Below, in pieces: positions 2,709-34,713 of a stretch of 34,713 bases of DNA. A model generated the notes under the pieces. That model did not search any database. It saw only the letters and a list, made by a program, of their open reading frames with translations, and had not been told where the DNA came from. The stretch comes from Chthoniobacterales bacterium (GTDB lineage Bacteria > Verrucomicrobiota > Verrucomicrobiia > Chthoniobacterales > UBA10450). The number at the start of each line of letters is the position of its first letter. Position 1 is the stretch's first letter. The DNA lies in NCBI GenBank assembly GCA_013695925.1, contig JACCZO010000180.1:1-34713 (forward strand), given 5' to 3'. The position numbers were made by a program, and so were the translations under genes.

Positions 2709-5441
2709 CTAGTCGACGAGGTAACGCAGCCGCAAAGAGTGGATGATTTCCCGCGACTGTCCGTACGGCTTCCGGAAATTCTCGATCGTCCCGCAATTCA
2801 TCCGGCGCGCGAAAATATCCTCTTCGGTGCGATCAGCCGGCAGGCGTGAGACACTGCGATTTGCCCAGCGCCGCAGGACCGATTCGCAGGCGCGCAAGAA
2901 ATTGTAGGCGCTCCGCAGGCTGCCGGCGTCGCCTGCCACCATGATTTTCTGGCCGCGCAAGAGGTCGAGGGCCGAAAGAAAATTCGGTTCCCAGATCCCG
3001 TGCCGCATCTGCAGACCCTGCACCAAAAACTCAGCTTCAATCATCCCGCCGATGCCGGTCTTGAAATCATAAAAATCATTCCCGCTCCCGCGCTCGTTGG
3101 CGATGCGGGCGAGCATGTTCTCGATTTGCCTAACGAGGTCGGGGCGGCGGCCTGCGGCCAGCCAGAGCTCTTTCGCGAGGGCCTCGAAATCGTATCGGTG
3201 CGGTCCGGAGATCCCCCGCGCCCGGGTGAGCGATTGCAGTTCCCAAAACTGGGCGCGCTTTTCGTAGTAACCGCGCAAAGTCTCGAGCGAACAGACCAGC
3301 GGCCCCTTTTCCCCTTCCGGCCGCAGCCGGGGGTCGAGCGTTGCGAAACTTCCTTCGGCAGTCGAGAGCGCCATCTCGCCAATCAGGTTTTGCGCCGGAC
3401 GCGGGTCGTCGCCCACGAAGAGAACATCCAAATCCGCGCCATAACTAATCTCGCGCCCGCCGAACTTCCCAAGCCCGACAATGGTCACCGTTCCCTCAGG
3501 ATTCAACAGGCAGTCGACAACAACAAGGCAGGCCTCGGCCAGGTCGTTCTGCTCGGCGAGCAGTTGCGAGAGGGGCGCGATCTCGAGGACATCACGCAAC
3601 AGGATCCGGAGCGATTCACGCTGCCGGTAGACCCGCACCGCATCCACCTTTTCGTTGGTCGCGCCTAACGACTCCAGGCGCTCGAGATGTTGCGCCAGGC
3701 TGAAGGTGCGATCGAGCATTCCGCCTCGGGTCAGCTCCTCGAGCCATTGCGGGCGACGTATCAACCAGCCGCCACCCGCCTCGCTCGCATCAAAGGTCTT
3801 CACCAGCAATTCCAGCAGCCGGGGATTCGCCCCGAGCAATTCAAAGAGCAAACTTCGGAAGCCGTAAGCTTCCACAAAACGCACGAACTGAGTGAGGGTC
3901 GCATCGGGGTCGGCCGCACGGCTCAGCCAGGTCACGACCAAGGGTCGAAGCTTGCGAAAAATCTGCCGGGTGCGCGGCGCGACATGGAATCCGGCGCCGC
4001 TCTCGCCCAGTTGGGTCAGCGCCTTTGCCGCCTGCGCGGGGTCGCGAAAATTGCGCAAGTCCGGCACACCTAATTCCTTCGCCGGCCCAGCTTCGCCAAT
4101 CACTCGCTGGAAGATGGCGCGCACCCGCCGCATCTGGGTGCGAAGTTCCGCGAGCAGCTCCGCGCTCCCGGCGAAGCCAAGGCTCTGCGCCAGCACCTGC
4201 AAAGCTTCGCCCTCTTCCGGGATGGTGTGCGTCTGCTGCTCGGCCTCGATCTGCAGGCGGTGCTCCACTCGCCGCAGAAATCGGTAGGCCATTTCGAGAT
4301 GATTCGCGTTTTCGTTAGGCAGCAACTCCAGCTCCGCCAGGCCGCGGATCGCCTTGAGCGTCCCGGCTTCCTGCAAAAACGGCTGCCGCGCCGCGTGCAG
4401 GAGTTGCAACGCCTGCACCACAAACTCGATCTCCCGGATCCCGCCCGCGCCCAGTTTCACATTCCGTTCCCGGTCCTCGAAGCCGAGGATGTCGCGCTCG
4501 ATCCGGCGCTTGATCGCGGCCACTTCGTCGAGCAGATCCGGCGTCGGACTTTTCGGAAAAACAAAGGGCTGGAGCTGACGGAGAAAATCGTAGGCCAGCT
4601 CGCGATCACCGCAGATCCAGCGCGCCTTGATCAAGGCCAGCCGCTCCCACATTTCGCCAAAACCGGCATAGTAGTTTTCCATGCTCTCGAGCGAGCGGAC
4701 GAGCGGGCCGCCGCCCCCTTCCGGCCGCAGCCGCAGATCGACCCGGAAAAGCGAGCCCGCCGGATCGGAGCCGGCGAAGGTCTCGACGATCTTGTTCCCG
4801 AGGCGGGTGAACCATTCGTGATAACTGAACCTCGCGTTCAACTGGCCCTCATCGCTGTAGAGGAAGATGAGGTCGACATCGGAGCTGTGATTCAGTTCGC
4901 GTCCGCCCAGCTTTCCCATCCCGATGATCGCAAACTGACTCTCCGGCGACCCCCAGCGCTGGCGCAGCTCGACGTCCCAGTGTTCAAAAACGGTCGTTAG
5001 GCAAATATCCGCCAGCTGCGACAGTTCGATCAGCGTTTCCTCGAGCGGCGCCACCTCGGATACTTCGCGCAATGCGATCCGCACCATCTCGCGACCTTTC
5101 CAGAAACGAAGGACGCGAAAATTATCGGCCGCAATCGAGGCGCGGCCCGCCAGGTTGTGCAGATCGGTCATCATCCGGCCAAAACCGCGCCGGTCGGCGC
5201 AGGTGTCGGGATGGGCCAGCCAAAGCAATATTTCCGGATGCTGACTGAGACGGGTGGCGCAGATCCCGGAGACGGAGAGGAGATGAAAGAGGGCCTCCGC
5301 GCCTAACGGAAAGCCGGCGATGAGTTCCGGCAGGGGCGGCGCGTCCGGCGGCCAATTCGCCTCGATTGCCTCCAGCGTCCGCGCCACCTGGGCCGGGCGG
5401 ATGCTGCGCGCGATTTCCCCTAACGAGTCCGCCACCGCCAC
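2709..5441 (-). CDS. glnE: Bifunctional glutamine synthetase adenylyltransferase / adenylyl-removing enzyme
   Basis: The 910-aa product has two nucleotidyltransferase modules (GMGKLGGRELNHSSDVDLIFLY...VDLRLRPEG and GLGKFGGREISYGADLDVLFV...LDPRLRPEG) plus GGIREIEF. It uses a GTG start, and the rhomboid stop codon (5443-5445) lies 1 nt upstream of that start. Confidence 0.93.
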   Translation of the reverse strand: MAVADSLGEIARSIRPAQVARTLEAIEANWPPDAPPLPELIAGFPLGAEALFHLLSVSGICATRLSQHPEILLWLAHPDTCADRRGFGRMMTDLHNLAGRASIAADNFRVLRFWKGREMVRIALREVSEVAPLEETLIELSQLADICLTTVFEHWDVELRQRWGSPESQFAIIGMGKLGGRELNHSSDVDLIFLYSDEGQLNARFSYHEWFTRLGNKIVETFAGSDPAGSLFRVDLRLRPEGGGGPLVRSLESMENYYAGFGEMWERLALIKARWICGDRELAYDFLRQLQPFVFPKSPTPDLLDEVAAIKRRIERDILGFEDRERNVKLGAGGIREIEFVVQALQLLHAARQPFLQEAGTLKAIRGLAELELLPNENANHLEMAYRFLRRVEHRLQIEAEQQTHTIPEEGEALQVLAQSLGFAGSAELLAELRTQMRRVRAIFQRVIGEAGPAKELGVPDLRNFRDPAQAAKALTQLGESGAGFHVAPRTRQIFRKLRPLVVTWLSRAADPDATLTQFVRFVEAYGFRSLLFELLGANPRLLELLVKTFDASEAGGGWLIRRPQWLEELTRGGMLDRTFSLAQHLERLESLGATNEKVDAVRVYRQRESLRILLRDVLEIAPLSQLLAEQNDLAEACLVVVDCLLNPEGTVTIVGLGKFGGREISYGADLDVLFVGDDPRPAQNLIGEMALSTAEGSFATLDPRLRPEGEKGPLVCSLETLRGYYEKRAQFWELQSLTRARGISGPHRYDFEALAKELWLAAGRRPDLVRQIENMLARIANERGSGNDFYDFKTGIGGMIEAEFLVQGLQMRHGIWEPNFLSALDLLRGQKIMVAGDAGSLRSAYNFLRACESVLRRWANRSVSRLPADRTEEDIFARRMNCGTIENFRKPYGQSREIIHSLRLRYLVD

Positions 5442-11020: not shown

Positions 11021-11096
11021 GACCCTATCGTCCAGAGGCCTAGGACACCGCCCTTTCACGGCGGTAACACGGGTTCGAATCCCGTTGGGGTCGCCA
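11021..11096 (+). tRNA. tRNA-Glu (anticodon UUC)
   Basis: The 76-nt sequence GACCCTATCGTCCAGAGGCCTAGGACACCGCCCTTTCACGGCGGTAACACGGGTTCGAATCCCGTTGGGGTCGCCA is near-colinear with E. coli tRNA-Glu. It has anticodon loop CTTTCAC, T-loop TTCGAAT and an encoded CCA. Confidence 0.93.
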
Positions 11097-23011: not shown

Positions 23012-23373
23012 GCGGTCGCGACTCCTTTCGTGAACTCGGCGGTTTGCCGCGTCTGTGTTCGCCTAACGAGATAACGAACTGAAACGCGAAGGGTGGAATC
23101 CTCGCTCAGCACGTCGACCGCATCGACTTGGATGAGATCGCCCAGATACTGCTGCAGCGATCCCTGGACCAGATACTGGGTGGTCGCGGCGAGCTGGTCG
23201 CTGTTGGGCGCGAAGACGAGCTGGAGCAATCCGCTCCCGAAGTCCGGGCGGTTGACCCGTTCCCCCGGCGCGGTGAAGAGCACCTGCTCGATCAGGTCAC
23301 GAATATGCGCGTCGTAATCGACCGCGGCGGTGCGGCCGCGTGCGTCGAAGTGATACGGGAAAGCGATGTTCAC
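23008..23373 (-). CDS. GPW/gp25-family baseplate wedge protein (Afp9-like)
   Basis: The 121-aa product contains IRDLIEQVLFTAPGERVNRPDFGSGL, the classic gp25 core. The start is GTG. Confidence 0.9.
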   Translation of the reverse strand: MNIAFPYHFDARGRTAAVDYDAHIRDLIEQVLFTAPGERVNRPDFGSGLLQLVFAPNSDQLAATTQYLVQGSLQQYLGDLIQVDAVDVLSEDSTLRVSVRYLVRRTQTRQTAEFTKGVATA

Positions 23374-23937
23374 AGAAGATAACGAAGTTAACGAAGAGGA
23401 TTAGAAAGCGAGGCTGCGAGGTTCGGTGGACTCGCCAGAAGGTCAATTTCGTCCTGGTTGGCGGCGGGCAGAACCAACCTCGAGATGCCATTTTTAAGTG
23501 TCTGCTCGTGAAAGTTGAAGAGGAGGCCGATCGGAACGTCGAGCAACTTCATGTAGCTCAGGAGCTGCGCCTTGTGCACGCCGACGATGGTTTCCACAAC
23601 TTTCAGTTCGATGAGCAGGCAATTCTCGATCAGCAGGTCGAAGCGCAGCGGTTCGTCAAAAACGAATTGCTTGTATTCGATGCGCACGAGTTTTTGCTGG
23701 ACCGCGTTGATCCCGCGTAGCTGCAACTCACGCCCGAGACATTTTTCGTAGATCGACTCGATCAGGCCCGGCCCCATCTGCCGATGCACTTCAATCGCCG
23801 CGCCGATGACTTCTTTGCTGAGCTTGTCTGCCTGATGAAATAAAGGGTGCATGGTCAGGGGATAAAACAGAAGGCCAGGAAAGAAACGCAGGGGTGGTTC
23901 CCGGGAAGAACCCTTTGTGACCTTCGTTTCCTTCTGT
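23372..23937 (-). mobile_element. Putative GxxExxY gene cassette 1, bounded by 16-bp inverted repeats
   Basis: ACAGAAGATAACGAAG (23372-23387) compares with the reverse complement of CTTCGTTTCCTTCTGT (23922-23937), ACAGAAGGAAACGAAG, with 14/16 matching. The cassette fills the gp25-PAAR intergenic gap almost exactly. Confidence 0.35.
23388..23852 (-). CDS. GxxExxY-family protein (PD-(D/E)XK nuclease-like fold)
   Basis: The motif GLIESIY (GxxExxY) is followed by a D...ELK-type core (RFDLLIENCLLIELKVV) and LLFNF. The C-terminal tail is read-through of flanking repeat sequence. Confidence 0.85.
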   Translation of the reverse strand: MHPLFHQADKLSKEVIGAAIEVHRQMGPGLIESIYEKCLGRELQLRGINAVQQKLVRIEYKQFVFDEPLRFDLLIENCLLIELKVVETIVGVHKAQLLSYMKLLDVPIGLLFNFHEQTLKNGISRLVLPAANQDEIDLLASPPNLAASLSNPLR

Positions 23938-23949
23938 AAAAATGCTTTC

Positions 23950-24267: not shown

Positions 24268-24271
24268 AAGA

Positions 24272-24703
24272 TCAGAGGAATATTTCGTCCGCAGATTTCG
24301 CAGATTTTCGCAGATTGGAAGAGGCGGTCGGATCGAAAGCCAACCGCTCATACTGCAGGCTGGTTGCTCCAAAATTGACGAGGAGACCGCGTCTCAGCCC
24401 GGTCGCTGTCAGTGCGTTGATGACCTGTGCCCGATCGGCGCCGGAGAGCTGGGAGATCGCTTTTGTTTCCACCAGGACTGCCTCGAAGCAGATGAAGTCG
24501 GCGCGATAACTGCAGGTTAGGAGCTTGCCCTTATAGCGAATCGGTAAAGGCACTTCGGCTTGAAATGCGATCCCGCGCTCAGCGAACTCCAACGCCATCG
24601 CGGTCTGATAGACGATCTCCAGGAAGCCATGTCCTAGTTCGCGATGAACGGCCATCGCCGCACCGAGAATCGCGTAGGTTTCGGGATCTCTGACTTCTTT
24701 CAT
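24272..24703 (-). CDS. GxxExxY-family protein (PD-(D/E)XK nuclease-like fold), second paralog
   Basis: It contains GFLEIVY (GxxExxY), YRADFICFEAVLVETKA and LLVNFG. The last ~15 aa (SNLRKSAKSADEIFL) translate the CGCAGATT repeat. Confidence 0.85.
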   Translation of the reverse strand: MKEVRDPETYAILGAAMAVHRELGHGFLEIVYQTAMALEFAERGIAFQAEVPLPIRYKGKLLTCSYRADFICFEAVLVETKAISQLSGADRAQVINALTATGLRRGLLVNFGATSLQYERLAFDPTASSNLRKSAKSADEIFL

Positions 24704-24803
24704 CTTGGAATTTCATCCGCGGATTTCGCAGATTCTCGTAGATGGGATGGCCGGCCCTCTCTCTCCATCCGGAAAAATCTGCGTAAATCTGCGTAATCTG
24801 CGG
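24289..24803 (-). mobile_element. Putative GxxExxY gene cassette 2, bounded by ~27-bp inverted CGCAGATT-repeat arms
   Basis: CCGCAGATTTCGCAGATTTTCGCAGATT (24289-24316) compares with the reverse complement of ATCTGCGTAAATCTGCGTAATCTGCGG (24777-24803). An extra forward arm lies at 24717-24743. Confidence 0.35.
24717..24803. repeat. Palindromic CGCAGATT-repeat element (copy B)
   Basis: The left arm CCGCGGATTTCGCAGATTCTCGTAGAT and right arm ATCTGCGTAAATCTGCGTAATCTGCGG flank a spacer that contains its own GGATGG...CCATCC hairpin. Confidence 0.7.
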
Positions 24804-24807
24804 ACAC

Positions 24808-25320
24808 TTAAATAATCGTTAGGGCGCTGGCGTTGATGTCAGTGGAAGGACCGACCATGTTGATGATCGCGCCCTTGCCGTTGGAAATGATGATGCCGGT
24901 GTCGCTGACCGAGACCATCGCGCCGGTCGTAGTCTTGATCAGAATGCCACCGGTCGGACCCGGCACGTCGCTGATCGTCAGGCTATTTTGCAACGGTGTT
25001 TGAAAAGTGATTCCGGGAACGCCGGGCGGGACGATCAAAGCCGCGGCTGGCACTTCCGCGGCGCTGCCGTAGAAACAGCCAGTCCAGATCGGGTAATCGG
25101 GATCGCCATGCTCGTATTCGATCCAGACGGCGGACCCAACAATCGGCACCGTGAACATACCATTCTGGATCCCGGCGATCGGGAAACATGGCATGCACCA
25201 GCTCGACGGAAGCAGGCCGGTCACATCGGGCACGATCGCCATGATCCGCCCCATCATCATGGGATCGATGTTGTTCAGGACCGTGCCGCGATATTTGCCG
25301 AAGAATTTTTTATCACTCAT
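24808..25320 (-). CDS. Phage baseplate assembly protein V / gp5-like spike (VgrG OB-fold; Afp8 C-terminal part equivalent)
   Basis: It contains FFGKYRGTVLNNIDPMMMGRI...GSAVWIEYEHGDPDYPIWTG. I chose the ATG at 25320 because the GTG at 25389 would translate the REP-like palindrome. Confidence 0.85.
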   Translation of the reverse strand: MSDKKFFGKYRGTVLNNIDPMMMGRIMAIVPDVTGLLPSSWCMPCFPIAGIQNGMFTVPIVGSAVWIEYEHGDPDYPIWTGCFYGSAAEVPAAALIVPPGVPGITFQTPLQNSLTISDVPGPTGGILIKTTTGAMVSVSDTGIIISNGKGAIINMVGPSTDINASALTII

Positions 25321-25334
25321 AACGGTGCGTGGGC

Positions 25335-25404
25335 TGTAGCCGGGGGCGTTGAACCCGGCGGGACGAGGTGGCCGCCAGGCCGGGGTCACCGCCCCCGGCT
25401 ACAA
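25335..25404. repeat. REP-like palindromic element, family GTAGCCGGGGGCG (copy 2)
   Basis: TGTAGCCGGGGGCG (25335-25348) is the reverse complement of CGCCCCCGGCTACA (25390-25403). It matches the arms of the 9595-9677 element. Confidence 0.7.
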
Positions 25405-25428
25405 CTGCGGTTTGCCTATTTCGTTTCA

Positions 25429-26556
25429 TCATGCCGGGACTTTCGCGAAGGTGGAGATGAGGCCGTTGCGGGTGAGGGTGAAATCCTGTTTGAACTCGCC
25501 GCGCTTAATCTTGCTCGTCACACTCTTGACGTAGTAGAGGCCGTCGAAGGCTTCTCCGACGCCGCGCAGCCCAACCAGCCGGCGCGCTTTCAGGACCTGG
25601 CCATAACGCGCGACGTTCAGGCTGCCCGTGGCGGTCACGGCCTCGACGCTTCGCGCCGCTTTCGTTAGGCCAAGGACGGCGGCGCGGATCGGCGAATAAT
25701 TCGCGGTCTCGTTGATCGGCTCGAGGTTGAGCGGGATCGGCGGGATCAAACCGAGCGGCGGATTGAGCGGCGAAATGTTCGGGATCGGAATGGGAACTGG
25801 GACATGGGTCTGCTGGTTTTGGATGTAAACGATCGGGATGACCGCACCCTGCGAACGGAAGCTGCAGGAGACGCTCTCGATGTTACTCGCCGCATCCATG
25901 TTGATGCTGAGCGCCTTTTGTGGCTCGCCCACCTTTATTTCTGGACCCCAGTAGGCCACGCTCATCCCCGGCTCCGGGCCGGGATCGACATAAAAGACGT
26001 AGCCAACCTCATCCGCGAGCGAGCGGATGTAGGCGAGGTCTTTGCCCTGCTGCACCGGGATGCGATCGGTCGGGATCGGGATATCGATTAGGATGCTCGG
26101 GATGACGAGCGGGACGATGCCGAGGAAAGCGTACTTGAGCAGGATCAATCCCACACGCGCTTCCGGCGGCATGGCGGGAAACGGGAACCCGCTGAAGTCG
26201 ATGTAATCCATCACCCGGCTGAGATCTTCACCGGTGATGGTGAGGACGGAATGCGAGGCATCGGCCCCGGGACGGATCTCGTGATTGGTCATCACGCCAT
26301 CCATTAGCACCTCGGCATTGCCGCCGACCGTGACGATGATTACCACCCTGACGAGTGGAATCGACGCGCCGCCTGCGAGAAGGAAGATGGTTTGGAGCGG
26401 CGAGCGATGGCTGAGGGTGAACTCGAGCTGGAAACCGCTCCCGCTCTCGCTGTTCGTGGTCACACTGAGGGAGGTCAGTGCCTCGAGCACCTCCTGCGAG
26501 ACCGGCACAGGCACGACCGGGCCGATCATGAGCGTGAGATGAAAACCATTAGCCAT
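25429..26556 (-). CDS. Phage late control gene D-like baseplate hub protein (Afp8 N-terminal part equivalent)
   Basis: The 375-aa product has a gpD/VgrG-N-like sequence (DLAYIRSLADEVGYVFYVDPGP...). It lies immediately upstream of the gpV spike and overlaps the LysM gene by 8 nt. Confidence 0.72.
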   Translation of the reverse strand: MANGFHLTLMIGPVVPVPVSQEVLEALTSLSVTTNSESGSGFQLEFTLSHRSPLQTIFLLAGGASIPLVRVVIIVTVGGNAEVLMDGVMTNHEIRPGADASHSVLTITGEDLSRVMDYIDFSGFPFPAMPPEARVGLILLKYAFLGIVPLVIPSILIDIPIPTDRIPVQQGKDLAYIRSLADEVGYVFYVDPGPEPGMSVAYWGPEIKVGEPQKALSINMDAASNIESVSCSFRSQGAVIPIVYIQNQQTHVPVPIPIPNISPLNPPLGLIPPIPLNLEPINETANYSPIRAAVLGLTKAARSVEAVTATGSLNVARYGQVLKARRLVGLRGVGEAFDGLYYVKSVTSKIKRGEFKQDFTLTRNGLISTFAKVPA

Positions 26557-26911
26557 TTTGTGCTCCGGGAATGTTCTCCGGCAGGGTGATGCGGAGGCGG
26601 CGGCCGACCGGCTCGATCAGTTCGTTAGGCCGAACCGCGCCGTTGGCGTCGCAAAGCCGCCAGAACTGCTCCGGATCGCCGAGATACTTCGCCGCGATTT
26701 GATCCAGCCGCTCCCCTTCGGTCACGCTGTGCTCCTGCAGGAGGGCGAAATTCTCCGGCGGCGGAACGAAGCGGCGCCGCAGATAAGCCACCTCGGTTCC
26801 GTCCGGCATCGTCAGCTTGGCGAGCGGCGTTTGGTGGTATCGGCTGTTGGCCGGGAAGGCCGGGGTGGCGGCGCCGGTTTGCTGGAGCAGGGCCTGGAGT
26901 TGATCGCTCAT
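26549..26911 (-). CDS. LysM-like / tail protein X-like protein
   Basis: The 120-aa product has a C-terminal HSVTEGERLDQIAAKYLGDPEQFWRLCDANG...GRRLRITLP region that is LysM-like. Its position matches the LysM part of Afp7. Confidence 0.68.
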   Translation of the reverse strand: MSDQLQALLQQTGAATPAFPANSRYHQTPLAKLTMPDGTEVAYLRRRFVPPPENFALLQEHSVTEGERLDQIAAKYLGDPEQFWRLCDANGAVRPNELIEPVGRRLRITLPENIPGAQNG

Positions 26912-26939
26912 TTTTCGTTAGCAAGAAAGACGGTTTCAT

Positions 26940-27021
26940 CCGCAGATTTCGCAGATTTACGCAGATTTCTTTCCGGCACTTCGGCGCTTCCTAAATCTGC
27001 GAAAATCTGCGTCATCCGCGG
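26940..27021. repeat. Palindromic CGCAGATT-repeat element (copy C, gene-less)
   Basis: CCGCAGATTTCGCAGATTTACGCAGATTT (26940-26968) is mirrored by AAATCTGCGAAAATCTGCGTCATCCGCGG (26993-27021). It fills the gap between the tube-like and LysM genes. Confidence 0.72.
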
Positions 27022-27026
27022 ACCTT

Positions 27027-27689
27027 TCATGAAATCCCCTTGATCCCGAAGTTGGCGAAGGATCCGTTAGGCGCGAGGCCCGCGAGCCGTTCCTTTTGCT
27101 GCTGGTAAATCATGTAAAGACTCCCCGCCTTGGCCTCGAAACCGACATCGTTCACACTCAGGACGCGCAGCCCGAGGCTGACCTTGGCCCGGATGGGATT
27201 GAGGTTCGGATCGAAGGCTTCCTCCGTGATGCTGAATTCCGTCAGGCGCACCGGGATGATCCGGTTCTTGCTCCAGATAAAAAGCGTAAGCGCGGACTGC
27301 ATCGGGATGATCTCGAGCGTGCCCGATTTCGAGAGCGCGTTGTTCGATTGCAACTGCTCGCTCGTCGGATAAACGATCGCCTCCAGCGCCGCGAGCTGCG
27401 GATGAATCCCGACCTCGACCGCGTTCGTATTTTGATCCGGAAACTCGAGCTGATCGGTCGCGTCGATCTCCGCATCGAGCTTGATCGTTTCCACCGGCGG
27501 CCCCTTCAGCCGCAATATCTCGGAACGATCACCGCCGCCATCCGCGCTCACGCCTTGGATTTGGAGCGAACGCGTCAGCGTGTCGGGATTGTATTGCAGC
27601 GAAATAATCCGCTGCACTGCGCCCGAGTCCGGATTCACGAGGACGATGCCGCCCTTGAGCAGTTTTGGTGAATTGGGAAAAGTGCTCAT
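27027..27689 (-). CDS. CIS tube-like protein (tube initiator / Afp7 N-terminal-like)
   Basis: The 220-aa product contains LLKGGIV...ISLQYNPDTLTRSL...LRLKGPPVETIKLDAEIDATD...IIPVRLTEFSITEEAFDPNLNPIRAKVSLGLRVL, resembling gp19/CIS-tube-fold proteins of eCIS loci. Confidence 0.68.
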   Translation of the reverse strand: MSTFPNSPKLLKGGIVLVNPDSGAVQRIISLQYNPDTLTRSLQIQGVSADGGGDRSEILRLKGPPVETIKLDAEIDATDQLEFPDQNTNAVEVGIHPQLAALEAIVYPTSEQLQSNNALSKSGTLEIIPMQSALTLFIWSKNRIIPVRLTEFSITEEAFDPNLNPIRAKVSLGLRVLSVNDVGFEAKAGSLYMIYQQQKERLAGLAPNGSFANFGIKGIS

Positions 27690-27692
27690 TCG

Positions 27693-29162
27693 TTAGGCAA
27701 GCTGGTCTCCTCCCTCGACCCGGTCGGGGCCGGCGTAGAGCGTGCCACTCGGCCGCTCCAACATTGCGCCCTGCTTCTTTTGGCCGCCGCTCGGCGCCGC
27801 GGCCGGTGCGGCCGTAGTCGTGATTTTGCAGGGACTGGTTTGATCGGTCAGGTCCTTGACGCACATCGAGCCCTTCTGCCAATCGTAGTTGTATTCCGGA
27901 CTCGCCCAGACGGCGGCCAGGTTCCCTTTGTGCGCAAAATAGAGCCGCTTGATTTTCGTCATGTTTTTCGCCGCTGTTTCTCCTTTCGCCAGGCCCTCGA
28001 TGCAGTCCTTGACCGCGTGCCCGTCGGCGCTTTTAAGTCCGCTCACCTGTTTGACCAGCGCTGCGTCCACCTCGCCTTCCTTGCCTTTCGGAATCTGACT
28101 CGGATCGGTCAGTTCGGTTCCGTCGGGCAGCACGAGGGGCGTAACCACGCTGACGATGCTCCAGCAGGTCATGCCGCGGGCCTTCTGCGCGCCGACATTT
28201 TGACGGAAGGTTTCCATCTCCTGCGGAGCGTCGCCGAGCTTGCAGCCACGAAAATCGATCAGCGCCGGTGCCTTGTCCGCAGGAATGCCCTTCAGATCCT
28301 TGCTCAAGTCGGAGAGCTTGACCCAGGAGATTGTCCCGATACCGGAGATGACCTGCACTTCGCCCGCGCGGTTCGAATGCGAGACGACGAAAATGGTGCC
28401 GATCGGTTTGCCTAACGCCAATAGCTTTTTCTTGGCATCTTCCCCACTGGTCACGCGGATGGCGGTCGGGGCGTAGCTTTTCCCTTCCGTCATCGCGTCC
28501 GCTTCGTCGCCGAAAACGATCGCCACATCGATCCGTTCTTCTGGTTTGGCGTCGTCGCGTTGCACCGCGTGACGGCCGGGCGCGGTCTGCTGTACGACAT
28601 GGGCGAGCTCGTGCGCGAGAAGTTTCTGGCCCGCCGCCGTCGCCGGCGCGTACCGCCCAGCGTTAAAAGCGATGTGGCTGCCCACGGTGTAGGCGTGCGC
28701 CCGAACGGCCCGCGCGCTTTCCGCCGCCCGCGAATCAGCATGAATGCGCACGTCTCCAAAATGATGACCGAAGTGGGAAGACATCCGGTCCCGCGTCGCC
28801 GAATCGAGCGGCTCGCCGCCGGATGCGACCACCTCATCCACGATCGGCGGCGAGGTCATGTCGCCGAGAGAGTCTCCGTTCCACGACGAGAGCCGCGCCC
28901 GGGACGCGCTCGAGCCTAACGAGTCGGCCGCCCGGTCCGCCTCCTCTTCCAAGGCGCTACCAGAAGCCGTCACAACCAGTTTGGCCTGCAGCTTCGCCGG
29001 CGGGCGCTCCGTCGCGCGCTGCTGCTTGCGACAGCTCTCGCATTCTCCCGCGGGCCCGGGGGTTCCACCGCAGGCGCATTTGCGCTGGAGCCGCGCACTC
29101 CGCCAGGGCGCGGACAGTTGCGCTGTGCTCGCCTGGGTTTGCAGTAGATTCGCCTCTTTCAT
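27693..29162 (-). CDS. DUF4157 domain protein 3 (Cys-rich leader + DUF4157 with HELAH + orphan ~285 aa C-terminal domain)
   Basis: Its parts are the leader LQRKCACGGTPGPAGECESC, EEEADRAAD, and the DUF4157 core PPIVDEVVASGGEPLD...FGHHFGDVRIHAD...AYTVGSHIAF...LLAHELAHVVQQ. It overlaps the upstream gene with ATGA. Confidence 0.85.
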   Translation of the reverse strand: MKEANLLQTQASTAQLSAPWRSARLQRKCACGGTPGPAGECESCRKQQRATERPPAKLQAKLVVTASGSALEEEADRAADSLGSSASRARLSSWNGDSLGDMTSPPIVDEVVASGGEPLDSATRDRMSSHFGHHFGDVRIHADSRAAESARAVRAHAYTVGSHIAFNAGRYAPATAAGQKLLAHELAHVVQQTAPGRHAVQRDDAKPEERIDVAIVFGDEADAMTEGKSYAPTAIRVTSGEDAKKKLLALGKPIGTIFVVSHSNRAGEVQVISGIGTISWVKLSDLSKDLKGIPADKAPALIDFRGCKLGDAPQEMETFRQNVGAQKARGMTCWSIVSVVTPLVLPDGTELTDPSQIPKGKEGEVDAALVKQVSGLKSADGHAVKDCIEGLAKGETAAKNMTKIKRLYFAHKGNLAAVWASPEYNYDWQKGSMCVKDLTDQTSPCKITTTAAPAAAPSGGQKKQGAMLERPSGTLYAGPDRVEGGDQLA

Positions 29163-31957
29163 GGCAGCGGATGGCGGGCGTTTAGTTGTTCCGCGAGGTC
29201 GACGATCTTGCTTTGGTGTCCGGCGATGATGTTACTGACCCGGCCGACGAGGGCGCGCAAAAGCAGGCGAGTCCGTTCCGGCGTCGTCGTTAGGGCAAAA
29301 AAATCGTCGCCGAGAACGATGGAAGTGCCCGGGCCGGCCGACCACGAAGTGGTTTTCGCCGCCGGATCGCGCTTCGCGTTCAGATCAGCGCGGACCCGAT
29401 TGAGCAGAGTCTTGTAACGGTCGGCCAGGCCCGCGACCGCAAAGCGATCGTCATCGGTCGGGAGGGCGGGCGGCGGCGTTAGGCCAAACTGCGCGGCGAT
29501 CAGCTTCATCGTTTCTTCGTAGTAGCTGTTGGTCCATTTCTTCTTCGGGGGACGCGATTCCACCATCGTGGAATAGGTGCTGGCCGTTTCCTGGTGGGAC
29601 CATTTCAACCAGTCCGCCAAGAGAGTGATGGCGTCGGCCACGCCGGATTTCTCGCCCGCGGCGACGGTCAGTTTGTCCACCGGAAGCTTCGGCCGGGCAA
29701 AGGACGGATCCGCCGCCAGCATGACGAAAAGCGAGTAACTGTCGGAGTTCTGCAGCGCCTGGTCCGGCGTCAGGCTGGCGATGCGGCGTTCGTGCCGGTA
29801 AGCGATATCAGTCGTGCCGGCCGTCTTCCCTGCGAGGCCCAGCCCCGGCGTGCCGTGGGCGGTTTCGTGGATGAAATTGCGTTTCCGTTCCTGCTTGCCG
29901 GCGCTCACGAAGGTCGGGCAAAGCGTCAGCGTCGCCTTCTTGCCTTCATCTTCGTTGTAGGCAATCGCTACCGTGCAGGTGCCGTTGCATAGCGTCCCGC
30001 AGCGATGTCGCTTTTTCTTCGCCACGATGTCCATTTGCGCCCGAACCTTCCCCAGGTTCGCGTCCAGCGTCGTCATCATCGCGGCCCCGCTGCCCGCGCC
30101 GCCTCCCCCCCCGAAAAACTCGTCCCGCAGATCGTTCGTACTTGCATCCGTTCCTGAGGTGAGAAGCCGGCGGGCCTTGTCGATTAATCCCTGCGCCTCC
30201 GTCCGTACCGCGACGAAATCCGTTTCGACGTTGGCGCTGCACGGCCCGGTGGCCGCCGTCTTTTTGCAATCAGGAACCGCGGAGGTGGCCCCGGCGGGCC
30301 CGATCTCGACCTCGCGCAAGCTGCGATAGTCGAGCCGTCCGTCGCCGACATCGGGCTTCGGGTCCGGCTTGCGTTTGCCGGTGTGTCCGACCGTCTTCAA
30401 TTCCGCATCGACCGCATTGATCCGCCGGTCGGCCAGGGTCCGGCCGATTGCCGGGGTCGTCGCCTCATCCTCGCTTACCCGACCGATGAGATCGAGATCG
30501 TCTCCGCTGTGCGCTCCGCCGCCGGCGATGAGGACGGCAAACTTTCCCTCCGAGCCGATCGCGACATCGTTGCGCTCAAAAAAGACGCTATGGGCGCCAG
30601 ACGAACCCATCCCGCTCTTGCGCCCCGTCACCTCCAGGCCCGCCGGAACGGCCCGCTGCACGGCGGGCGGCAGTGCGCTCTGCTGCAAGACGTGGGTCAA
30701 CTCGTGCGCGAGCAACTGGCGGCCGGCATTTGTCTCCGGGGCAAAGCTGCCGCCGGCAAAAACGACATCCTGCCCGACCGTGTAGGCCCGGGCCTGGACG
30801 GCGCGGGCCGATTCCGCCGCGCGTCCGTCGCGATGAATCCGCACGCTTCCAAACTCGTAACCGAAACGATCTTCCATGAACTCGCGCGTCGCGCGGTCGA
30901 GCGGTTCTCCGGACGATTGCAGTACCTGATCGACGATCGGGGGCGCGCTGCCCACTTCCTGATGGCCCGCGGCCTTGCGCTGGAGGGTTCCTTCTTCTTT
31001 TTTCTTCGGTTCCTCGCTCGTTTCGCCGCTCAGTTTGAAATCCGGAGCCCACGGGCCTAACGAACGTCGCGGCCCCGCGGCCGGGGCCCCGGGGCGGAAA
31101 CCGGGATCCTGCCCCACCGCCCCGAAGGAGAGCGGCGAGGTGCGCGGCGTCAGCTGGCCGGGAGCGAGCATCCGGCTCGAGACGTAGGCGTTGATCATCT
31201 CTTGCTCGCTCGCCTTCTCTTCATCGCTCTTGAGGCCTTCGCGAAACTTCGCCTGGTCCGCCGCCATCCGCGCGGTCTCGGCCCGGAACTTTTCGGTCTC
31301 GCTGAGCGTGGTTTTTTTGTCGCGCGTCTTTTCTTTGCCTAACGGAATGCTGAAGGTCGCGACCACCTTGGTCGGTTTATCGACCGGCCCTTCATAGGTG
31401 ATTTTCATCTTCAGGCCGGGCCTGATCTTATCGAGCGGGATCTCGGGAATTCCGATCGGCAATTCCTTGTGCGTGGCCGCGAGGGTCGCGACCGCTCCGG
31501 CAACGGCGGCGCCGGTAATGATCTTCCCCGGCAAGGTCGAAATGAAGGCGTCTCCGAGCTCTTCTGCTTTTTTTGTGATCTCTTTGCCCTGCGGAGTTTC
31601 GAGAAACGCTTCGCCCACCTTCTTGGCTGCTTCTTTGTATTTTTCCTCTTCGGATTTCGGCTTGGCCGGTTCTTCGCGTTGCACGGCACCGCCGCTACCT
31701 AACGAACTGATTGAAGGGCGGCCCGTGCGCCCCCCGCCGACCGCCTCTTCGGCTACCCGGTCGGCCTCCTGCTCGTACTGGTCGCCGGGCTGATTAATCG
31801 CCAACTTGGTCTGTAACGATAGCCGTTGCCGTTTGCACTCGGCACACTCCCCGGTCGGCCCGGGAGTTCCGCCGCAGGCGCACTTGCGCTGCAGCGTTGG
31901 TTGGGCGGAAAGCTTGCTGGCTGTGGCTTGGACAGGCTGAGCGACAGTTACTCTCAT
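29159..31957 (-). CDS. DUF4157 domain protein 2 (Cys-rich leader, ~300 aa K/E-rich linker, DUF4157 with HELTH, C-terminal aspzincin-like HExxH domain)
   Basis: Its parts are LQRKCACGGTPGPTGECAEC, EQEADRVAE, PPIVDQVLQSSGEPLD...FGYEFGSVRIHRD...LLAHELTHVLQQ, and then a second motif set, FIHETAHG...GTTDIAY...LQNSDSYSLF. There are ATGA overlaps at both ends. Confidence 0.85.
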   Translation of the reverse strand: MRVTVAQPVQATASKLSAQPTLQRKCACGGTPGPTGECAECKRQRLSLQTKLAINQPGDQYEQEADRVAEEAVGGGRTGRPSISSLGSGGAVQREEPAKPKSEEEKYKEAAKKVGEAFLETPQGKEITKKAEELGDAFISTLPGKIITGAAVAGAVATLAATHKELPIGIPEIPLDKIRPGLKMKITYEGPVDKPTKVVATFSIPLGKEKTRDKKTTLSETEKFRAETARMAADQAKFREGLKSDEEKASEQEMINAYVSSRMLAPGQLTPRTSPLSFGAVGQDPGFRPGAPAAGPRRSLGPWAPDFKLSGETSEEPKKKEEGTLQRKAAGHQEVGSAPPIVDQVLQSSGEPLDRATREFMEDRFGYEFGSVRIHRDGRAAESARAVQARAYTVGQDVVFAGGSFAPETNAGRQLLAHELTHVLQQSALPPAVQRAVPAGLEVTGRKSGMGSSGAHSVFFERNDVAIGSEGKFAVLIAGGGAHSGDDLDLIGRVSEDEATTPAIGRTLADRRINAVDAELKTVGHTGKRKPDPKPDVGDGRLDYRSLREVEIGPAGATSAVPDCKKTAATGPCSANVETDFVAVRTEAQGLIDKARRLLTSGTDASTNDLRDEFFGGGGGAGSGAAMMTTLDANLGKVRAQMDIVAKKKRHRCGTLCNGTCTVAIAYNEDEGKKATLTLCPTFVSAGKQERKRNFIHETAHGTPGLGLAGKTAGTTDIAYRHERRIASLTPDQALQNSDSYSLFVMLAADPSFARPKLPVDKLTVAAGEKSGVADAITLLADWLKWSHQETASTYSTMVESRPPKKKWTNSYYEETMKLIAAQFGLTPPPALPTDDDRFAVAGLADRYKTLLNRVRADLNAKRDPAAKTTSWSAGPGTSIVLGDDFFALTTTPERTRLLLRALVGRVSNIIAGHQSKIVDLAEQLNARHPLP

Positions 31958-33249
31958 GGCCTCTCTGGCAGGCGGATCTTGCCCGCCTTGCTGTTGTAGT
32001 AATAACCGCGGTCGTCCGACCAGACGGTCACGATGACCCCCTTCTTCTGCCAGCCTTCGCGCCCGGTGATCCGCTTGTAGACAAGGGGCGTCTTAGGATC
32101 GGGCACGTGGAGGTAAATGCCCGTCTCCGTGCCCGGGCCGGCGCGCACCAGTTCCACATCGATCAGGTCGTCAAAGACGATATCGACTGCAGGAGGGCCA
32201 ACGTAGTGCATTTGCAGCAATACCCGCAGGACGCCTGAGTCGGGAAAGATGATGGGCACGATAACGGCATAGCGCGTCGTCGACGCGCCCCCCCCGAACT
32301 TCACATCCAGGCCATCGGAATAAGTCGGCGCCGAATCCTGCCCGTTGAACAGCACCTTCTGCTGACCGTGAGCGGTCGTGAATTCGAAGCGCGCGCTAAC
32401 TCCGGAAATTCCTTTCAGTGGTTGTTTCGAATGCGGATATGGAGCCGCCCCCGGTCCAGACCAATCCAGAAAGTAGCGAAGGAAGAACTCCTCCGCCTCA
32501 CCTTCATAGGCGACCAATCTGCCGACACACGTGCGGTGTCCCGCAGGACCATCTCCTTGGACCGGGCCTGTTCCCTCGACAAAGGCCCCCATAACGTAAT
32601 CAGGATTACATTCCCTGTTCTCGGTGTGCATCCAGATCGTAATATTGTCAGCCGACCACGGCTCTGTCGCCTTGGCAGTTGCCCCGGCGCTGGGCCCCTT
32701 GCCCGCCGGTTTGTCGTCGGGCGACCTGCTCAGGACTGGCCCCGTGGCCCGCCCCACGAGCTGTTGCTTAGCCAAATCGGCCCCCACGGTTTCCTGCAGC
32801 ATGGTCTCGGCTTTCCTCTCCGATTCATCGTCGGCGTCCCTGACTTCGAGGCGGGCAGGCACCGGAATCTCGCCCTCGCTCTGTTGGAGGAAGTGGGTCA
32901 ACTCGTGCTTCAGCAGGCGAAGTCCCTCGGCCGTGCCGGGAGCGAAACGGTCTTTGGCAAACGCGATGTGCGACCCCACTGTGTAGGCGTGGGCATCCAC
33001 CGCCTGCGCTGAATCCGCCGCGCTCGAATCGCTATGAATTCGCACCCGGCCAAAATCATGTCCGAAGCGCGCCTCCATTGCCACACGAGTGGACTCTTCC
33101 AACGGCTGCCCGGGGGAACGCAAAACCTGATGCACAATTGGTGGCGCAATCGCCGGCGCCGCATCATTGGCAGCGCGGCGCTGCAGACGTGCGTTCGCTG
33201 GCACACACTGGCAACTCAAAGCGGGCGACCGCTGGCCTTGGAAAATCAT
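31954..33249 (-). CDS. DUF4157 domain protein 1 (DUF4157 with HELTH + orphan ~270 aa beta-rich C-terminal domain)
   Basis: It contains PPIVHQVLRSPGQPLEESTRVAMEARFGHDFGRVRIHSD...AYTVGSHIAF...LLKHELTHFLQQ. I preferred the ATG at 33249, which overlaps the upstream stop (ATGA), to the TTG at 33267. Confidence 0.85.
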   Translation of the reverse strand: MIFQGQRSPALSCQCVPANARLQRRAANDAAPAIAPPIVHQVLRSPGQPLEESTRVAMEARFGHDFGRVRIHSDSSAADSAQAVDAHAYTVGSHIAFAKDRFAPGTAEGLRLLKHELTHFLQQSEGEIPVPARLEVRDADDESERKAETMLQETVGADLAKQQLVGRATGPVLSRSPDDKPAGKGPSAGATAKATEPWSADNITIWMHTENRECNPDYVMGAFVEGTGPVQGDGPAGHRTCVGRLVAYEGEAEEFFLRYFLDWSGPGAAPYPHSKQPLKGISGVSARFEFTTAHGQQKVLFNGQDSAPTYSDGLDVKFGGGASTTRYAVIVPIIFPDSGVLRVLLQMHYVGPPAVDIVFDDLIDVELVRAGPGTETGIYLHVPDPKTPLVYKRITGREGWQKKGVIVTVWSDDRGYYYNSKAGKIRLPERP

Positions 33250-33500
33250 TCCGTTCCTCCTTTCCAAATCGTGCGCGCAATCTGCCGACCAGCGCGCGAC
33301 GGTTTCGTTAGACTTGCGGCGCGTAGCGGGCCGGCCTCGATTTTTTCCGGACTCTGATGCCAGGCCACCGGGAGGCCTTTTTCCATCAGCAATCCACGCA
33401 ACTCGCTTTCCAGCACGTCGCCGATCCGCCAGCGATCACCCGGGGCAAAGCCGTGCAGGACCAGCTCCTCGATGTGGACCTCGATCTCGCGCGGATTCAT
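33246..33500 (-). CDS. Small conserved-looking hypothetical protein (84 aa), translationally coupled to the first DUF4157 gene
   Basis: It starts at the ATG at 33500 (MNPREIEVHIEELVLHGFAPGDRWRIGDVLESELRGLL). The 37 codons upstream in the track ORF translate repeat element D. Confidence 0.6.
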   Translation of the reverse strand: MNPREIEVHIEELVLHGFAPGDRWRIGDVLESELRGLLMEKGLPVAWHQSPEKIEAGPLRAASLTKPSRAGRQIARTIWKGGTE

Positions 33501-33514
33501 AGGACTGAGGTGAT

Positions 33515-33598
33515 CCGCAGATTTCGCAGATTCACGCAGATGATTTGGGGCGCTTTTTCCTTTCCTCAAATCTGCGGACATCTGCGTCATCTGCAGAT
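33515..33598. repeat. Palindromic CGCAGATT-repeat element (copy D, gene-less)
   Basis: CCGCAGATTTCGCAGATTCACGCAGAT (33515-33541) is mirrored by AAATCTGCGGACATCTGCGTCATCTGCAGAT (33568-33598). It fills the gap between the ATPase and the small gene. Confidence 0.72.
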
Positions 33599-33607
33599 TA
33601 TTTAGTC

Positions 33608-34713
33608 TCATCGCCAGCCTCCCAATTCCGCTTCGGTCAGCGGTTTTTCGAGCTTCTCGTATTCAAGGCGGGCCGCGCCTAACAAATGCGGCATTCGCAC
33701 CGGTTCGCCCGCATCGGCCGCGGCAAAGGCGGCATTGAGCGCGATGCTGCGAATGTTCCCGCCAGAAATCGAAAGGCGGGAAAGGGCGCGCAGGTCCAAT
33801 TGATCGGTCGGCGTTTTCGCAGGGAAAATTCTTTTCCAGATTTCCGCGCGCTGCGCCTGATCGGGAAAGGGAAACTGGACGATGAAGCGCAACCGGCGGA
33901 GGAAAGCCTGATCGAGCGCCTCCTTCATGTTGGTGGTCAGAATCGCCAGCCCGCGATAGGCCTCCATTCGCTGCAGGAGGTAGCTGATCTCGACGTTGGC
34001 GTAACGATCGTGGCTGTCTTTCACCTCGCTCCGTTTGCCGAAGAGCGCGTCGGCCTCGTCGAAGAGCAGGACCGCACCGCCTTCCTCCGCTGCATCGAAG
34101 ACGCGCCGCAGATTCTTTTCCGTCTCGCCGATGTACTTGCTCACCACCGCGCTGAGATCGATCCGGAAAAGATCGAGCCGCATTTCGTTCGCGAGGATTT
34201 CGGCGGCAAGCGTTTTGCCGGTGCCGCTCGGGCCGGCGAAGAGCGCGCTCAAGCCGAGCCCGCGGCTCGATTGCTCGGCGAAACCCCACTCGTCGTAGAC
34301 CCGGCCGCGCTGCCGCAGATGCTGTGCGATCGTCTTCAGCACGGTCATCTGTGGCGTCGGCAGGACGATATCGGCCCAGGTGGCGTTCGAGGTGATGCGC
34401 GGCGCAAGATCCTGCAGGCGCGGACGGGCCTGCAGCCGGCAGGCATCCCAGAGACTCGACTCCGATGGTTCGCCTAACAATCCCGTCGCGGTCGTCCGGA
34501 TCGCGGCGGTGCTGAAGTCGAATTGCGCAACCAAGTGGTCGAGATGTCCGTTCCAGTTGCGGGCGTTTTCCCCGATCGCCTGTTCCCAGGCGAGGCGCTG
34601 CTCCGCCCGAGTTGGCTTCGGCACCTCGATCGTCATCAGCGGCCGCTCTAGATCGCGTCGCGGCTCGCGCGTGGAGATGAGCAACGGCGTGCCCGTGAGC
34701 TCGATCCAGCGCG
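33608..34713 (-). CDS. AAA+ ATPase of the eCIS type (Afp15/Pvc15-like), N-terminus beyond the right edge
   Basis: The frame stays open from 34684 to the window edge. It has Walker A (GPSGTGKT), Walker B (VLLFDEADALF), SKYIGETEKNLRRVF and LAILTTN..ALDQAFLRR, which is a CDC48/FtsH-like AAA core. Confidence 0.9.
   Translation of the reverse strand, partial: RWIELTGTPLLISTREPRRDLERPLMTIEVPKPTRAEQRLAWEQAIGENARNWNGHLDHLVAQFDFSTAAIRTTATGLLGEPSESSLWDACRLQARPRLQDLAPRITSNATWADIVLPTPQMTVLKTIAQHLRQRGRVYDEWGFAEQSSRGLGLSALFAGPSGTGKTLAAEILANEMRLDLFRIDLSAVVSKYIGETEKNLRRVFDAAEEGGAVLLFDEADALFGKRSEVKDSHDRYANVEISYLLQRMEAYRGLAILTTNMKEALDQAFLRRLRFIVQFPFPDQAQRAEIWKRIFPAKTPTDQLDLRALSRLSISGGNIRSIALNAAFAAADAGEPVRMPHLLGAARLEYEKLEKPLTEAELGGWR

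Follow-up and report, generated by a model that had tools for sequence, protein, structure and literature searches.

The eCIS operon and its intercistronic palindromes

Contig C149 (GenBank JACCZO010000180.1), analysed here over its entire 34.7 kb and referred to as the window, belongs to a metagenome-assembled genome of a Udaeobacter-like soil bacterium of the Verrucomicrobiae, order Chthoniobacterales (G000; fragmented, 3.29 Mb, 495 contigs, 60% G+C). On its minus strand lies an operon for an extracellular contractile injection system (eCIS), and certain junctions between its genes are occupied by palindromes built from CGCAGAT heptamers or by small cassettes in which similar arms bracket a gene of the GxxExxY family (PF13366, PD-(D/E)XK nuclease fold). 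The palindromes are probably the terminal arms, and the gene-less derivatives, of selfish cassettes that carry a promoterless GxxExxY gene and have inserted at stop/start junctions of this bacterium and related soil Verrucomicrobia; the derivatives would resemble miniature inverted-repeat transposable elements (MITEs). In order of transcription, the operon encodes an AAA ATPase, a small gene, three eCIS_core genes, CIS_tube, two unassigned genes, the spike (Phage_base_V), a GxxExxY gene, a PAAR-like gene, a second GxxExxY gene, gp25 and Baseplate_J, with more genes beyond.

Three palindromes and one 'half copy' had been listed in a first-pass annotation of the window, and all are seen directly in the sequence (Table 1). 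Read from the outside inward, each arm has the layout (T)CC-GCAGAT-NN-CGCAGAT-NNN-CGCAGAT, so that three heptamers stand 9 and then 10 bp apart, or approximately one helical turn; the mirrored arms enclose loops of 25–32 nucleotides (nt). Both the number of units and their spacing had been read correctly. In the window, 17 copies of CGCAGATT were counted where 1.9 would be expected, a number reached by none of 100 shuffles, and 15 of the 17 lie inside the four sites. None falls in the first 12 kb, the housekeeping DNA from which the annotation had reported the elements to be missing. All copies of the element are intercistronic, at the junctions of the AAA ATPase with the small gene, CIS_tube with the next gene, the spike with GxxExxY, and GxxExxY with PAAR.

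Table 1. Coordinates of the palindromes, cassettes and other features (window positions unless a contig is named).
Feature	Position	Strand	Context	Details
Insert A, gene-less CGCAGAT palindrome	33501-33607 (107 bp)		AAA ATPase stop to small-gene start	Arms 33513-33541 and 33569-33598
Insert B, gene-less CGCAGAT palindrome	26912-27026 (115 bp)		CIS_tube stop to next gene's start	Arms 26938-26967 and 26994-27023
GxxExxY cassette 1	24268-24807	minus	Between spike stop (24808) and PAAR start (24267)	Palindrome arms 24776-24805 (outer) and 24715-24743 (extra inner); lone far arm 24287-24316
GxxExxY/PDDEXK_3 nuclease-fold gene, CGCAGAT type	24272-24703	minus	Cassette 1	PF13366 1e-35; TIGR04256 8e-39
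GxxExxY cassette 2	23373-23949	minus	Between PAAR stop and gp25 start	Gene 23388-23852, PF13366 3e-37; outer arm 23912-23938; degenerate inner arm 23867-23892; far arm 23369-23399
eCIS_core (PF13699), three consecutive genes	27693-33267	minus	eCIS operon	C-terminal parts unrelated; middle protein with Aspzincin_M35 domain
tRNA gene	11021-11093	plus	Housekeeping half of contig	Rfam RF00005, 61.9 bits
Contig-end copies of the CACAGAT palindrome in G000	C1:2220-2335; C136:1-110; C147:2760-2870; C448:10225-10348; C454:1-100

Inserts A and B contain no open reading frame (ORF). Insert A has short non-palindromic tails with ATGA on each side, and insert B has a 27-nt tail that ends in ...CTAACGAAAA and is followed by the restored ATGA. 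The first-pass annotation had warned of spurious ORF extensions created by the elements, and this is borne out: the 121-residue ORF at 33246-33611 begins within the palindrome of insert A, its true start being the ATG at 33500, and the GxxExxY ORF of cassette 1 reads through the lone arm. Assembly artefact was ruled out as a source of the palindromes, because contigs identical to the window run across them in independent soil and sediment metagenomes of other studies (X2, X4).

The 'half copy' lies where it had been placed, but it is not a standalone half. It is the far arm of cassette 1 and pairs with the outer arm around the GxxExxY gene; this partner had been overlooked, as had the second cassette with its different arms. 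In sense order, cassette 1 comprises the outer arm, a loop, an extra inner arm, the gene and the far arm, and the inner and far arms are identical at 28 of 33 positions. This five-member arm–loop–arm–gene–arm layout is a new variant from this window; the orthologous cassette of a relative (L004) is a simple arm–gene–arm.

The gene of cassette 1 is the sole cognate gene found for CGCAGAT arms in this assembly, and its product groups with the CAGAT-arm clade in the protein tree. Its GFLEIVY motif and D...ETK residues are intact, and the GxxExxY and D...E-x-K residues are preserved in both window proteins. The AlphaFold model of the product (pLDDT 81) has a PD-(D/E)XK fold; its structural matches are weak and generic (e.g. 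Cas4 SSO0001 and lambda exonuclease, TM ~0.4), and there is no sequence relative in the PDB. The last ~20 codons of the ORF come from the arm (...NLRKSAKSADEIFL). This arm-encoded tail (24272-24340) is conserved in length and sequence among homologues of 139–143 residues (P0004-P0122), and is either part of the protein or constrained by the arm.

Cassette 2 has the layout of cassette 1 with a different unit, ACAGAAG/ACGAAG, again repeated 9–10 bp apart. The gp25 start in the window is a GTG inside the far arm of this cassette (23369-23372), while insert-free relatives use the ATG of an ATGA overlap.

Filled and empty junctions in orthologous operons

The window was compared with 17 orthologous operons, whose tube proteins are 84–98% identical to its own. 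In the closest of these (L001; tube protein 98% identical) all four inserts of the window are missing. Its junctions read GGCGATGAAC between the ATPase and the small gene, TTTCATGAGCG between the tube and the next gene, and GCGACATGAAT between PAAR and gp25, and in each a TGA stop overlaps an ATG start. At the same three junctions the window is longer by 107, 115 and 577 bases, and each addition is bordered left and right by ATGA (by GTGA to the right of the third). With ATGA on both insert flanks, the upstream stop and the downstream start therefore both survive.

The same comparison can be made across the remaining relatives. Insert A is missing from L001, L002, L005, L010, L011, L013 and L014, all of which have the junction GGCGATGAAC. 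At the junction of insert B, seven relatives are insert-free (TTTCATGAGCGATCAA), and in others a palindrome of this or another family sits at precisely that point. The junction of cassette 2 is insert-free, GCGACATGAAYATCGAC, in L001, L003 and most relatives. Overall, the ATPase–small gene junction is filled in 7 of 16 cases, the tube–next gene junction in 11 of 18, and the spike–PAAR and PAAR–gp25 junctions in 7 of 17 each; neighbouring junctions of the operon are almost never filled. The fillers of these four junctions belong to at least five palindrome families, among them CGCAGAT, TCGAA/TCCGAA, GGACGTGC and GAATGACGAA, and are again bounded by ATGA...ATGA. The inserts are polymorphic.

As a separate observation, the same junctions in L001 (8650-8810), L003, L005, L006, L015 and L057 hold elements of other families (TCGAA/TCCGAA, GAATGACGAA, GGACGTGC and CAACGCC). 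Joints seen in metagenomes had been considered as possible empty alleles, and turned out to be other arm copies elsewhere.

Arms and the GxxExxY gene travel together

In this genome, each of the six PF13366 genes lies between inverted three-unit arms, and each pair of arms has its own unit; on contig C51, for example, two CACAGAT arms directly flank a GxxExxY gene. Among relatives, 67 near-full-length PF13366 genes were examined, 45 of which have an inverted match of ≥22/26 in their flanks, a level attained by none of 201 shuffles (maximum 19). In these 45 cases the arms abut the gene within 10–30 nt. When mapped on the protein tree, the arm-unit class changes 11 times, whereas 300 label shuffles give 24.7 changes on average and never fewer than 20. 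All five large gene-less families of this genome (CGCAGAT, CACAGAT, CACGGAT, CGCAGAG and CAGGAAAG) have a gene-bearing copy of matching unit. The nuclease gene and its arms travel as one package.

At the variable positions of the units, agreement between the paired arms of one element is 0.87, against 0.52 between elements, whereas for the inter-unit spacers it is 0.57 within elements and 0.49 ± 0.05 between them, in a small sample of 27 elements. Conservation thus rests on the heptamers and not on an unbroken stem, a pattern that suggests protein recognition. In 23 of 24 scorable cases the genes flanking a cassette point in the same direction as the cassette gene (p = 3e-6). With the arms in place there is no space for a promoter, and the cassettes therefore probably live on read-through from the host operon.

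One pair of CACAGAT-type arms in G000 (C463:4839-5818; L117:1340-2319) brackets an antitoxin-like and a PemK/MazF-like ORF and no GxxExxY gene; the latter ORF scores 23.0 bits against PF02452, for which the cut-off is 23.1. A gene-less CGCAGAT palindrome (4724-4808) lies 30 bp upstream of this arm pair, and a PIN-domain gene follows it.

The GxxExxY family is a very large one. A survey of PD-(D/E)XK proteins lists the GxxExxY family as 'unknown' (PMC3424549), and full-text literature on GxxExxY (PDDEXK_3, PF13366, TIGR04256) yielded catalogue mentions only.

A genome-wide and lineage-wide family

The CGCAGAT pattern is represented by 14 arms on five contigs of this genome and occurs in 41 of 61 relatives, over many contigs, with no match in a backwards control. 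A strict arm pattern retrieves 39 arms from the genome and none from the reversed control; for a unit-agnostic census a reversed genome is no useful control, because inverted repeats survive reversal. The superfamily with variable units includes CACAGAT, CACGGAT, CGCGGAT, CGCAGAG, CAGGAAAG and ACAGGAT, and at least 29 of its sites were compiled in the genome. The true number will be higher, since identical copies interrupt the assembly and site and copy counts are thus underestimated. An identical CACAGAT palindrome with an additional outer inverted repeat (CCTAACAGACTGTTGAAATAG...) is found at or near five contig ends of G000 (Table 1). A 23S rRNA location was considered for these contig-end copies and rejected, as no rRNA was found; an Rfam scan detected no known RNA family and no rRNA at the elements.

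In a set of 116 distinct arms, the pentamer just outside unit 1 has the consensus T-T-R-W-C, and 53% of the arms have a stop triplet within 8 nt, compared with 15% of random 9-mers.

A junction between housekeeping genes on contig C53 illustrates the range of states. No insert is present in G006 and G018. G000 and several relatives have a CACGGAT element without a gene at this point, G012 has a palindrome of another family, and G001 has a truncated cassette. In G010 and G014, PF13366 genes of the CACGAAG type separate the two flanks by 520–590 bp. At this junction the stop codon of the upstream gene is provided by TTTAAC or TTTGAC at the outer end of the element.

The elements are not eCIS-specific; they form a genome-wide and lineage-wide family. 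The first-pass annotation had called for a genome-wide search for enrichment in contractile injection system loci. The copies are enriched in the operon, but specificity is lost with the spread of the family over many unrelated loci of this genome and in 41 of the 61 relatives. A generic family resembling REP (repetitive extragenic palindromic) sequences or MITEs, which that annotation had named as the outcome that would count against a dedicated eCIS role, is what emerged, with the caveat that the copies are not uniformly scattered.

The phased heptamers had also been described as iteron-like and as a possible binding site for a regulator, in which case they would form an operator for a transcription factor of the eCIS operon. 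The spacing of roughly one helical turn, the two inverted sets, and the conservation of the heptamers over that of the stem all suit such an operator. The phasing is real, but the role does not follow: the sites are missing from orthologous operons, close relatives among them, the same arms occur at many unrelated loci, they are the ends of cassettes, the only co-varying protein is the cassette's own nuclease, and the elements lie between cistrons and not in a promoter region. Promoter-like sites are not enriched in the window, their counts not exceeding those in shuffles. An operator of this kind is accordingly very improbable.

Who moves the elements, and what the hairpins do

Several observations weigh against a selfish cassette mobilised by its own nuclease. 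To our knowledge, no GxxExxY protein has a described biochemical activity. Genome G008 combines 27 CGCAGAT arms with a single PF13366 gene, of the CGCGGAT type, and G002 has 11 CGCAGAT arms and one weak PF13366 hit. Between arm and restored ATG there are non-palindromic tails of 4–27 nt, which differ by site; they are no less compatible with recombination-mediated spread than with precise transposition. The doubled ATGA could reflect a survivorship filter instead of a mechanistic target-site duplication, and four other ATGA overlaps of this operon are unoccupied. No excised form, transposition event or empty allele within a population was seen, the contigs of four metagenomes showing filled sites only. 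Lastly, the window's 10-kb stretch holds four sites against 0.09 expected from a uniform distribution, an enrichment of ~40-fold; this, and the recurrent occupation of the same four junctions, could also reflect selection of the hairpins for an influence on expression.

Some of these points suit an explanation in which the GxxExxY protein is not what moves the arms and empty shells. The mover would be hairpin-directed recombination or repair by the host, exchange of entire junction alleles between relatives by homologous recombination, or some other enzyme, with the nuclease as frequent cargo or as a sheltering addiction or defence gene. The tails travel with the palindromes, occurrence in relatives is patchy and unrelated to tube-protein identity, some arm-rich genomes have no cognate gene, and the C463 arm pair holds antitoxin-like and PemK-like genes in place of the nuclease. 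Against this, the nuclease clade closely tracks the arm unit, the arms lie close against the gene in most of the relatives' cases, no other type of gene is regular between arms, and RAYT-like genes (REP-associated tyrosine transposases) have distinct repeats of their own. A different mover is thus rather improbable, if the most serious of the competing explanations.

A second alternative starts from the RNA. The first-pass annotation had predicted that the transcribed palindromes would form stems, and they do so in folding calculations. In sense-strand RNA, each of the three palindromes forms a long stem with interruptions, at -38, -48 and -42 kcal/mol and z scores from -3.8 to -5.9 (insert A, -42.4 kcal/mol, z -5.9; insert B, -48 kcal/mol, z -5.8); a single arm consists of three direct repeats and has no self-complementarity. 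RNA runs containing this sequence were looked for, and none turned up. The hairpins might then be functional RNA elements of the operon, in which stems after the ATPase, tube, spike and PAAR genes uncouple translation, shield the mRNA from 3′ exonucleases or create RNase III sites, and so tune subunit ratios. REP hairpins in Escherichia coli operons are known to stabilise upstream mRNA. Stems of the intervening sequences (IVS) of 23S rRNA are substrates of RNase III (PMC4990558). The strength of the folds, the enrichment in the operon, and the way in which unrelated palindrome families keep turning up at these four junctions, the tube–next gene junction above all, are in keeping with such a function.

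However, the orthologous operons of the closest relatives (L001, L007, L013, L014 and L067) are intact with none or one of the four junctions filled, so that the hairpins are dispensable. The C53 housekeeping junction behaves alike, and the spacer positions of the stem are not kept complementary. Attenuation had also been suggested, but no palindrome was called as terminator-like (a G+C-rich stem followed by a U-run, as in intrinsic terminators) on the operon's minus (sense) strand, and the total number of calls in the window did not exceed that in shuffles. A device that sets eCIS subunit stoichiometry, as first proposed, is not supported: orthologous operons exist without the inserts, the family occupies unrelated loci, and the arms are the ends of GxxExxY cassettes. 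An expression effect cannot be the primary nature of the elements, because intact operons without them exist. A functional RNA role is unlikely as the main explanation, while a side effect of the hairpins on operon expression, or selection for one at the four hot junctions, is possible.

Proposed mechanism and implications

The origin of the palindromes in selfish GxxExxY cassettes therefore remains the probable reading, and a course of events can be outlined for it. Each arm consists of the conserved outer pentamer T-T-R-W-C and three family-specific heptamers spaced by about one helical turn. Cassettes and empty shells would insert at intercistronic stop/start junctions, with ATGA ending up on both sides, and loaded cassettes, lying in sense orientation, could be expressed through read-through from the host operon. 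The GxxExxY protein may bind both arms as a symmetric oligomer that recognises its own heptamers, and may cut at or near the cassette ends, thereby driving movement or homing. The transcribed hairpins between cistrons would be tolerated, or perhaps mildly useful. This mechanism of movement is inferred.

A wider proposal is offered tentatively. GxxExxY nucleases and three-heptamer inverted arms may together constitute an undescribed class of operon-parasitic elements, in which each lineage has its own heptamer code. Such elements would land on stop-containing tetranucleotides (ATGA or TTAA-like) and regenerate both stop and start, which would permit harmless colonisation of translationally coupled operons and expression by host read-through. 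The cassette class is apparently undescribed; no published definition was found, and it is defined operationally here.

The account replaces an eCIS-specific story of stoichiometry-setting hairpins with a concrete, testable one. For the orphan nuclease family PF13366/TIGR04256, it supplies a defined DNA partner, exact pairs of filled and empty junctions, and an orientation rule. New from this window are the exact filled/empty pairs, in which ATGA borders the insert left and right, the recurrence at hot junctions, the orientation rule and a negative RAYT control. For annotation, the arms account for false N- and C-terminal extensions and for shifted starts, such as the GTG of gp25. For eCIS biology and engineering, the comparison identifies the intercistronic junctions that tolerate inserts of 100–600 bp.

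Other features of the window

The eCIS_core genes vary strongly among the orthologous operons. A GTAG-type REP-like hairpin (GTTGTAGCCGGGGGCGGTGACCCCGGC) lies in the 39-nt gap at 25390-25428 between a 375-residue gene and the spike. Hairpins of this kind also stand beside Y1_Tnp (RAYT-like) genes on contigs C192, C435 and C345. The one in the window is a multi-copy repeat, because metagenome depth at the gap is 5–40 times that of the flanks. The motif CCTAACG/CGTTAGG has 2362 copies in the genome against ~430 expected from composition, and often provides the TAA stop at gene ends (GCCTAACGAATG); window examples are 27690-27700, between the third eCIS_core gene and the tube gene, and the tail of insert B at 26912-26937. 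A function of CCTAACG as a start-codon signal was considered and rejected: although over-represented, the motif has no positional peak upstream of ORF starts.

Comparison with known systems

REP sequences and REPINs (paired REPs) mobilised by RAYTs are among the closest published parallels. In both systems, short intergenic palindromes occur in tens of copies per genome, often between co-transcribed genes, and one master gene is flanked by the same repeats. The cassette gene, however, encodes a GxxExxY protein of ~125 residues with a PD-(D/E)XK fold and not a Y1 transposase, and the cassette arm is made of three direct heptamers and is not itself a hairpin, whereas a REP is a short imperfect palindrome. 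That the elements are ordinary REPs or REPINs moved by a RAYT (Y1 HUH) transposase is hard to credit. They share the form of short multi-copy intergenic palindromes, and the genome has ~10 Y1_Tnp matches, one of which (on C205) adjoins an ACAGGAT-type palindrome. Nevertheless, the repeats beside Y1_Tnp genes, in this genome as in relatives, are of the GGGGTC type or are GTAG-type REP hairpins, and heptamer arms stand beside none of the relatives' 28 Y1_Tnp genes with scorable flanks. The assignment fails because the Y1_Tnp genes carry other inverted repeats.

MITEs are a second parallel. Gene-less copies share terminal inverted repeats with a gene-bearing copy, their presence is polymorphic, and ATGA is duplicated at their flanks; inserts A and B combine terminal inverted repeats, non-coding content, insertion polymorphism and the duplication in 107 and 115 bp, respectively. 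Unlike MITEs, the elements have no recognised transposase, their only cognate gene being that for the PF13366 protein. The duplication always coincides with a stop/start overlap and may reflect selection, and the cassette arms are modular, with a unit that switches by family while the layout stays constant.

In the 23S rRNA IVS of Coxiella and Leptospira, an ORF for an S23p/four-helix-bundle protein sits in the loop of a ~28-bp stem that is an RNase III substrate, and the element has been called selfish (PMC4990558). As in the cassettes, a small ORF of unknown function lies between terminal inverted repeats within a host transcription unit. The host site here is a junction of protein genes and not an rRNA helix, in line with the Rfam result; the ORF belongs to PF13366 and not PF05635, and gene-less copies are abundant.

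Integron cassettes with their attC sites likewise combine promoterless small sense ORFs with imperfect palindromes whose structure is conserved while the sequence varies, and toxin–antitoxin cargo is found in both. The elements described here differ in having no integrase or attI, although no search aimed at intI was made, in having two arms per cassette against one attC, in standing as single cassettes at scattered junctions with no array, and in their outer motif, T-T-R-W-C, where attC cores read RYYYAAC/GTTRRRY.

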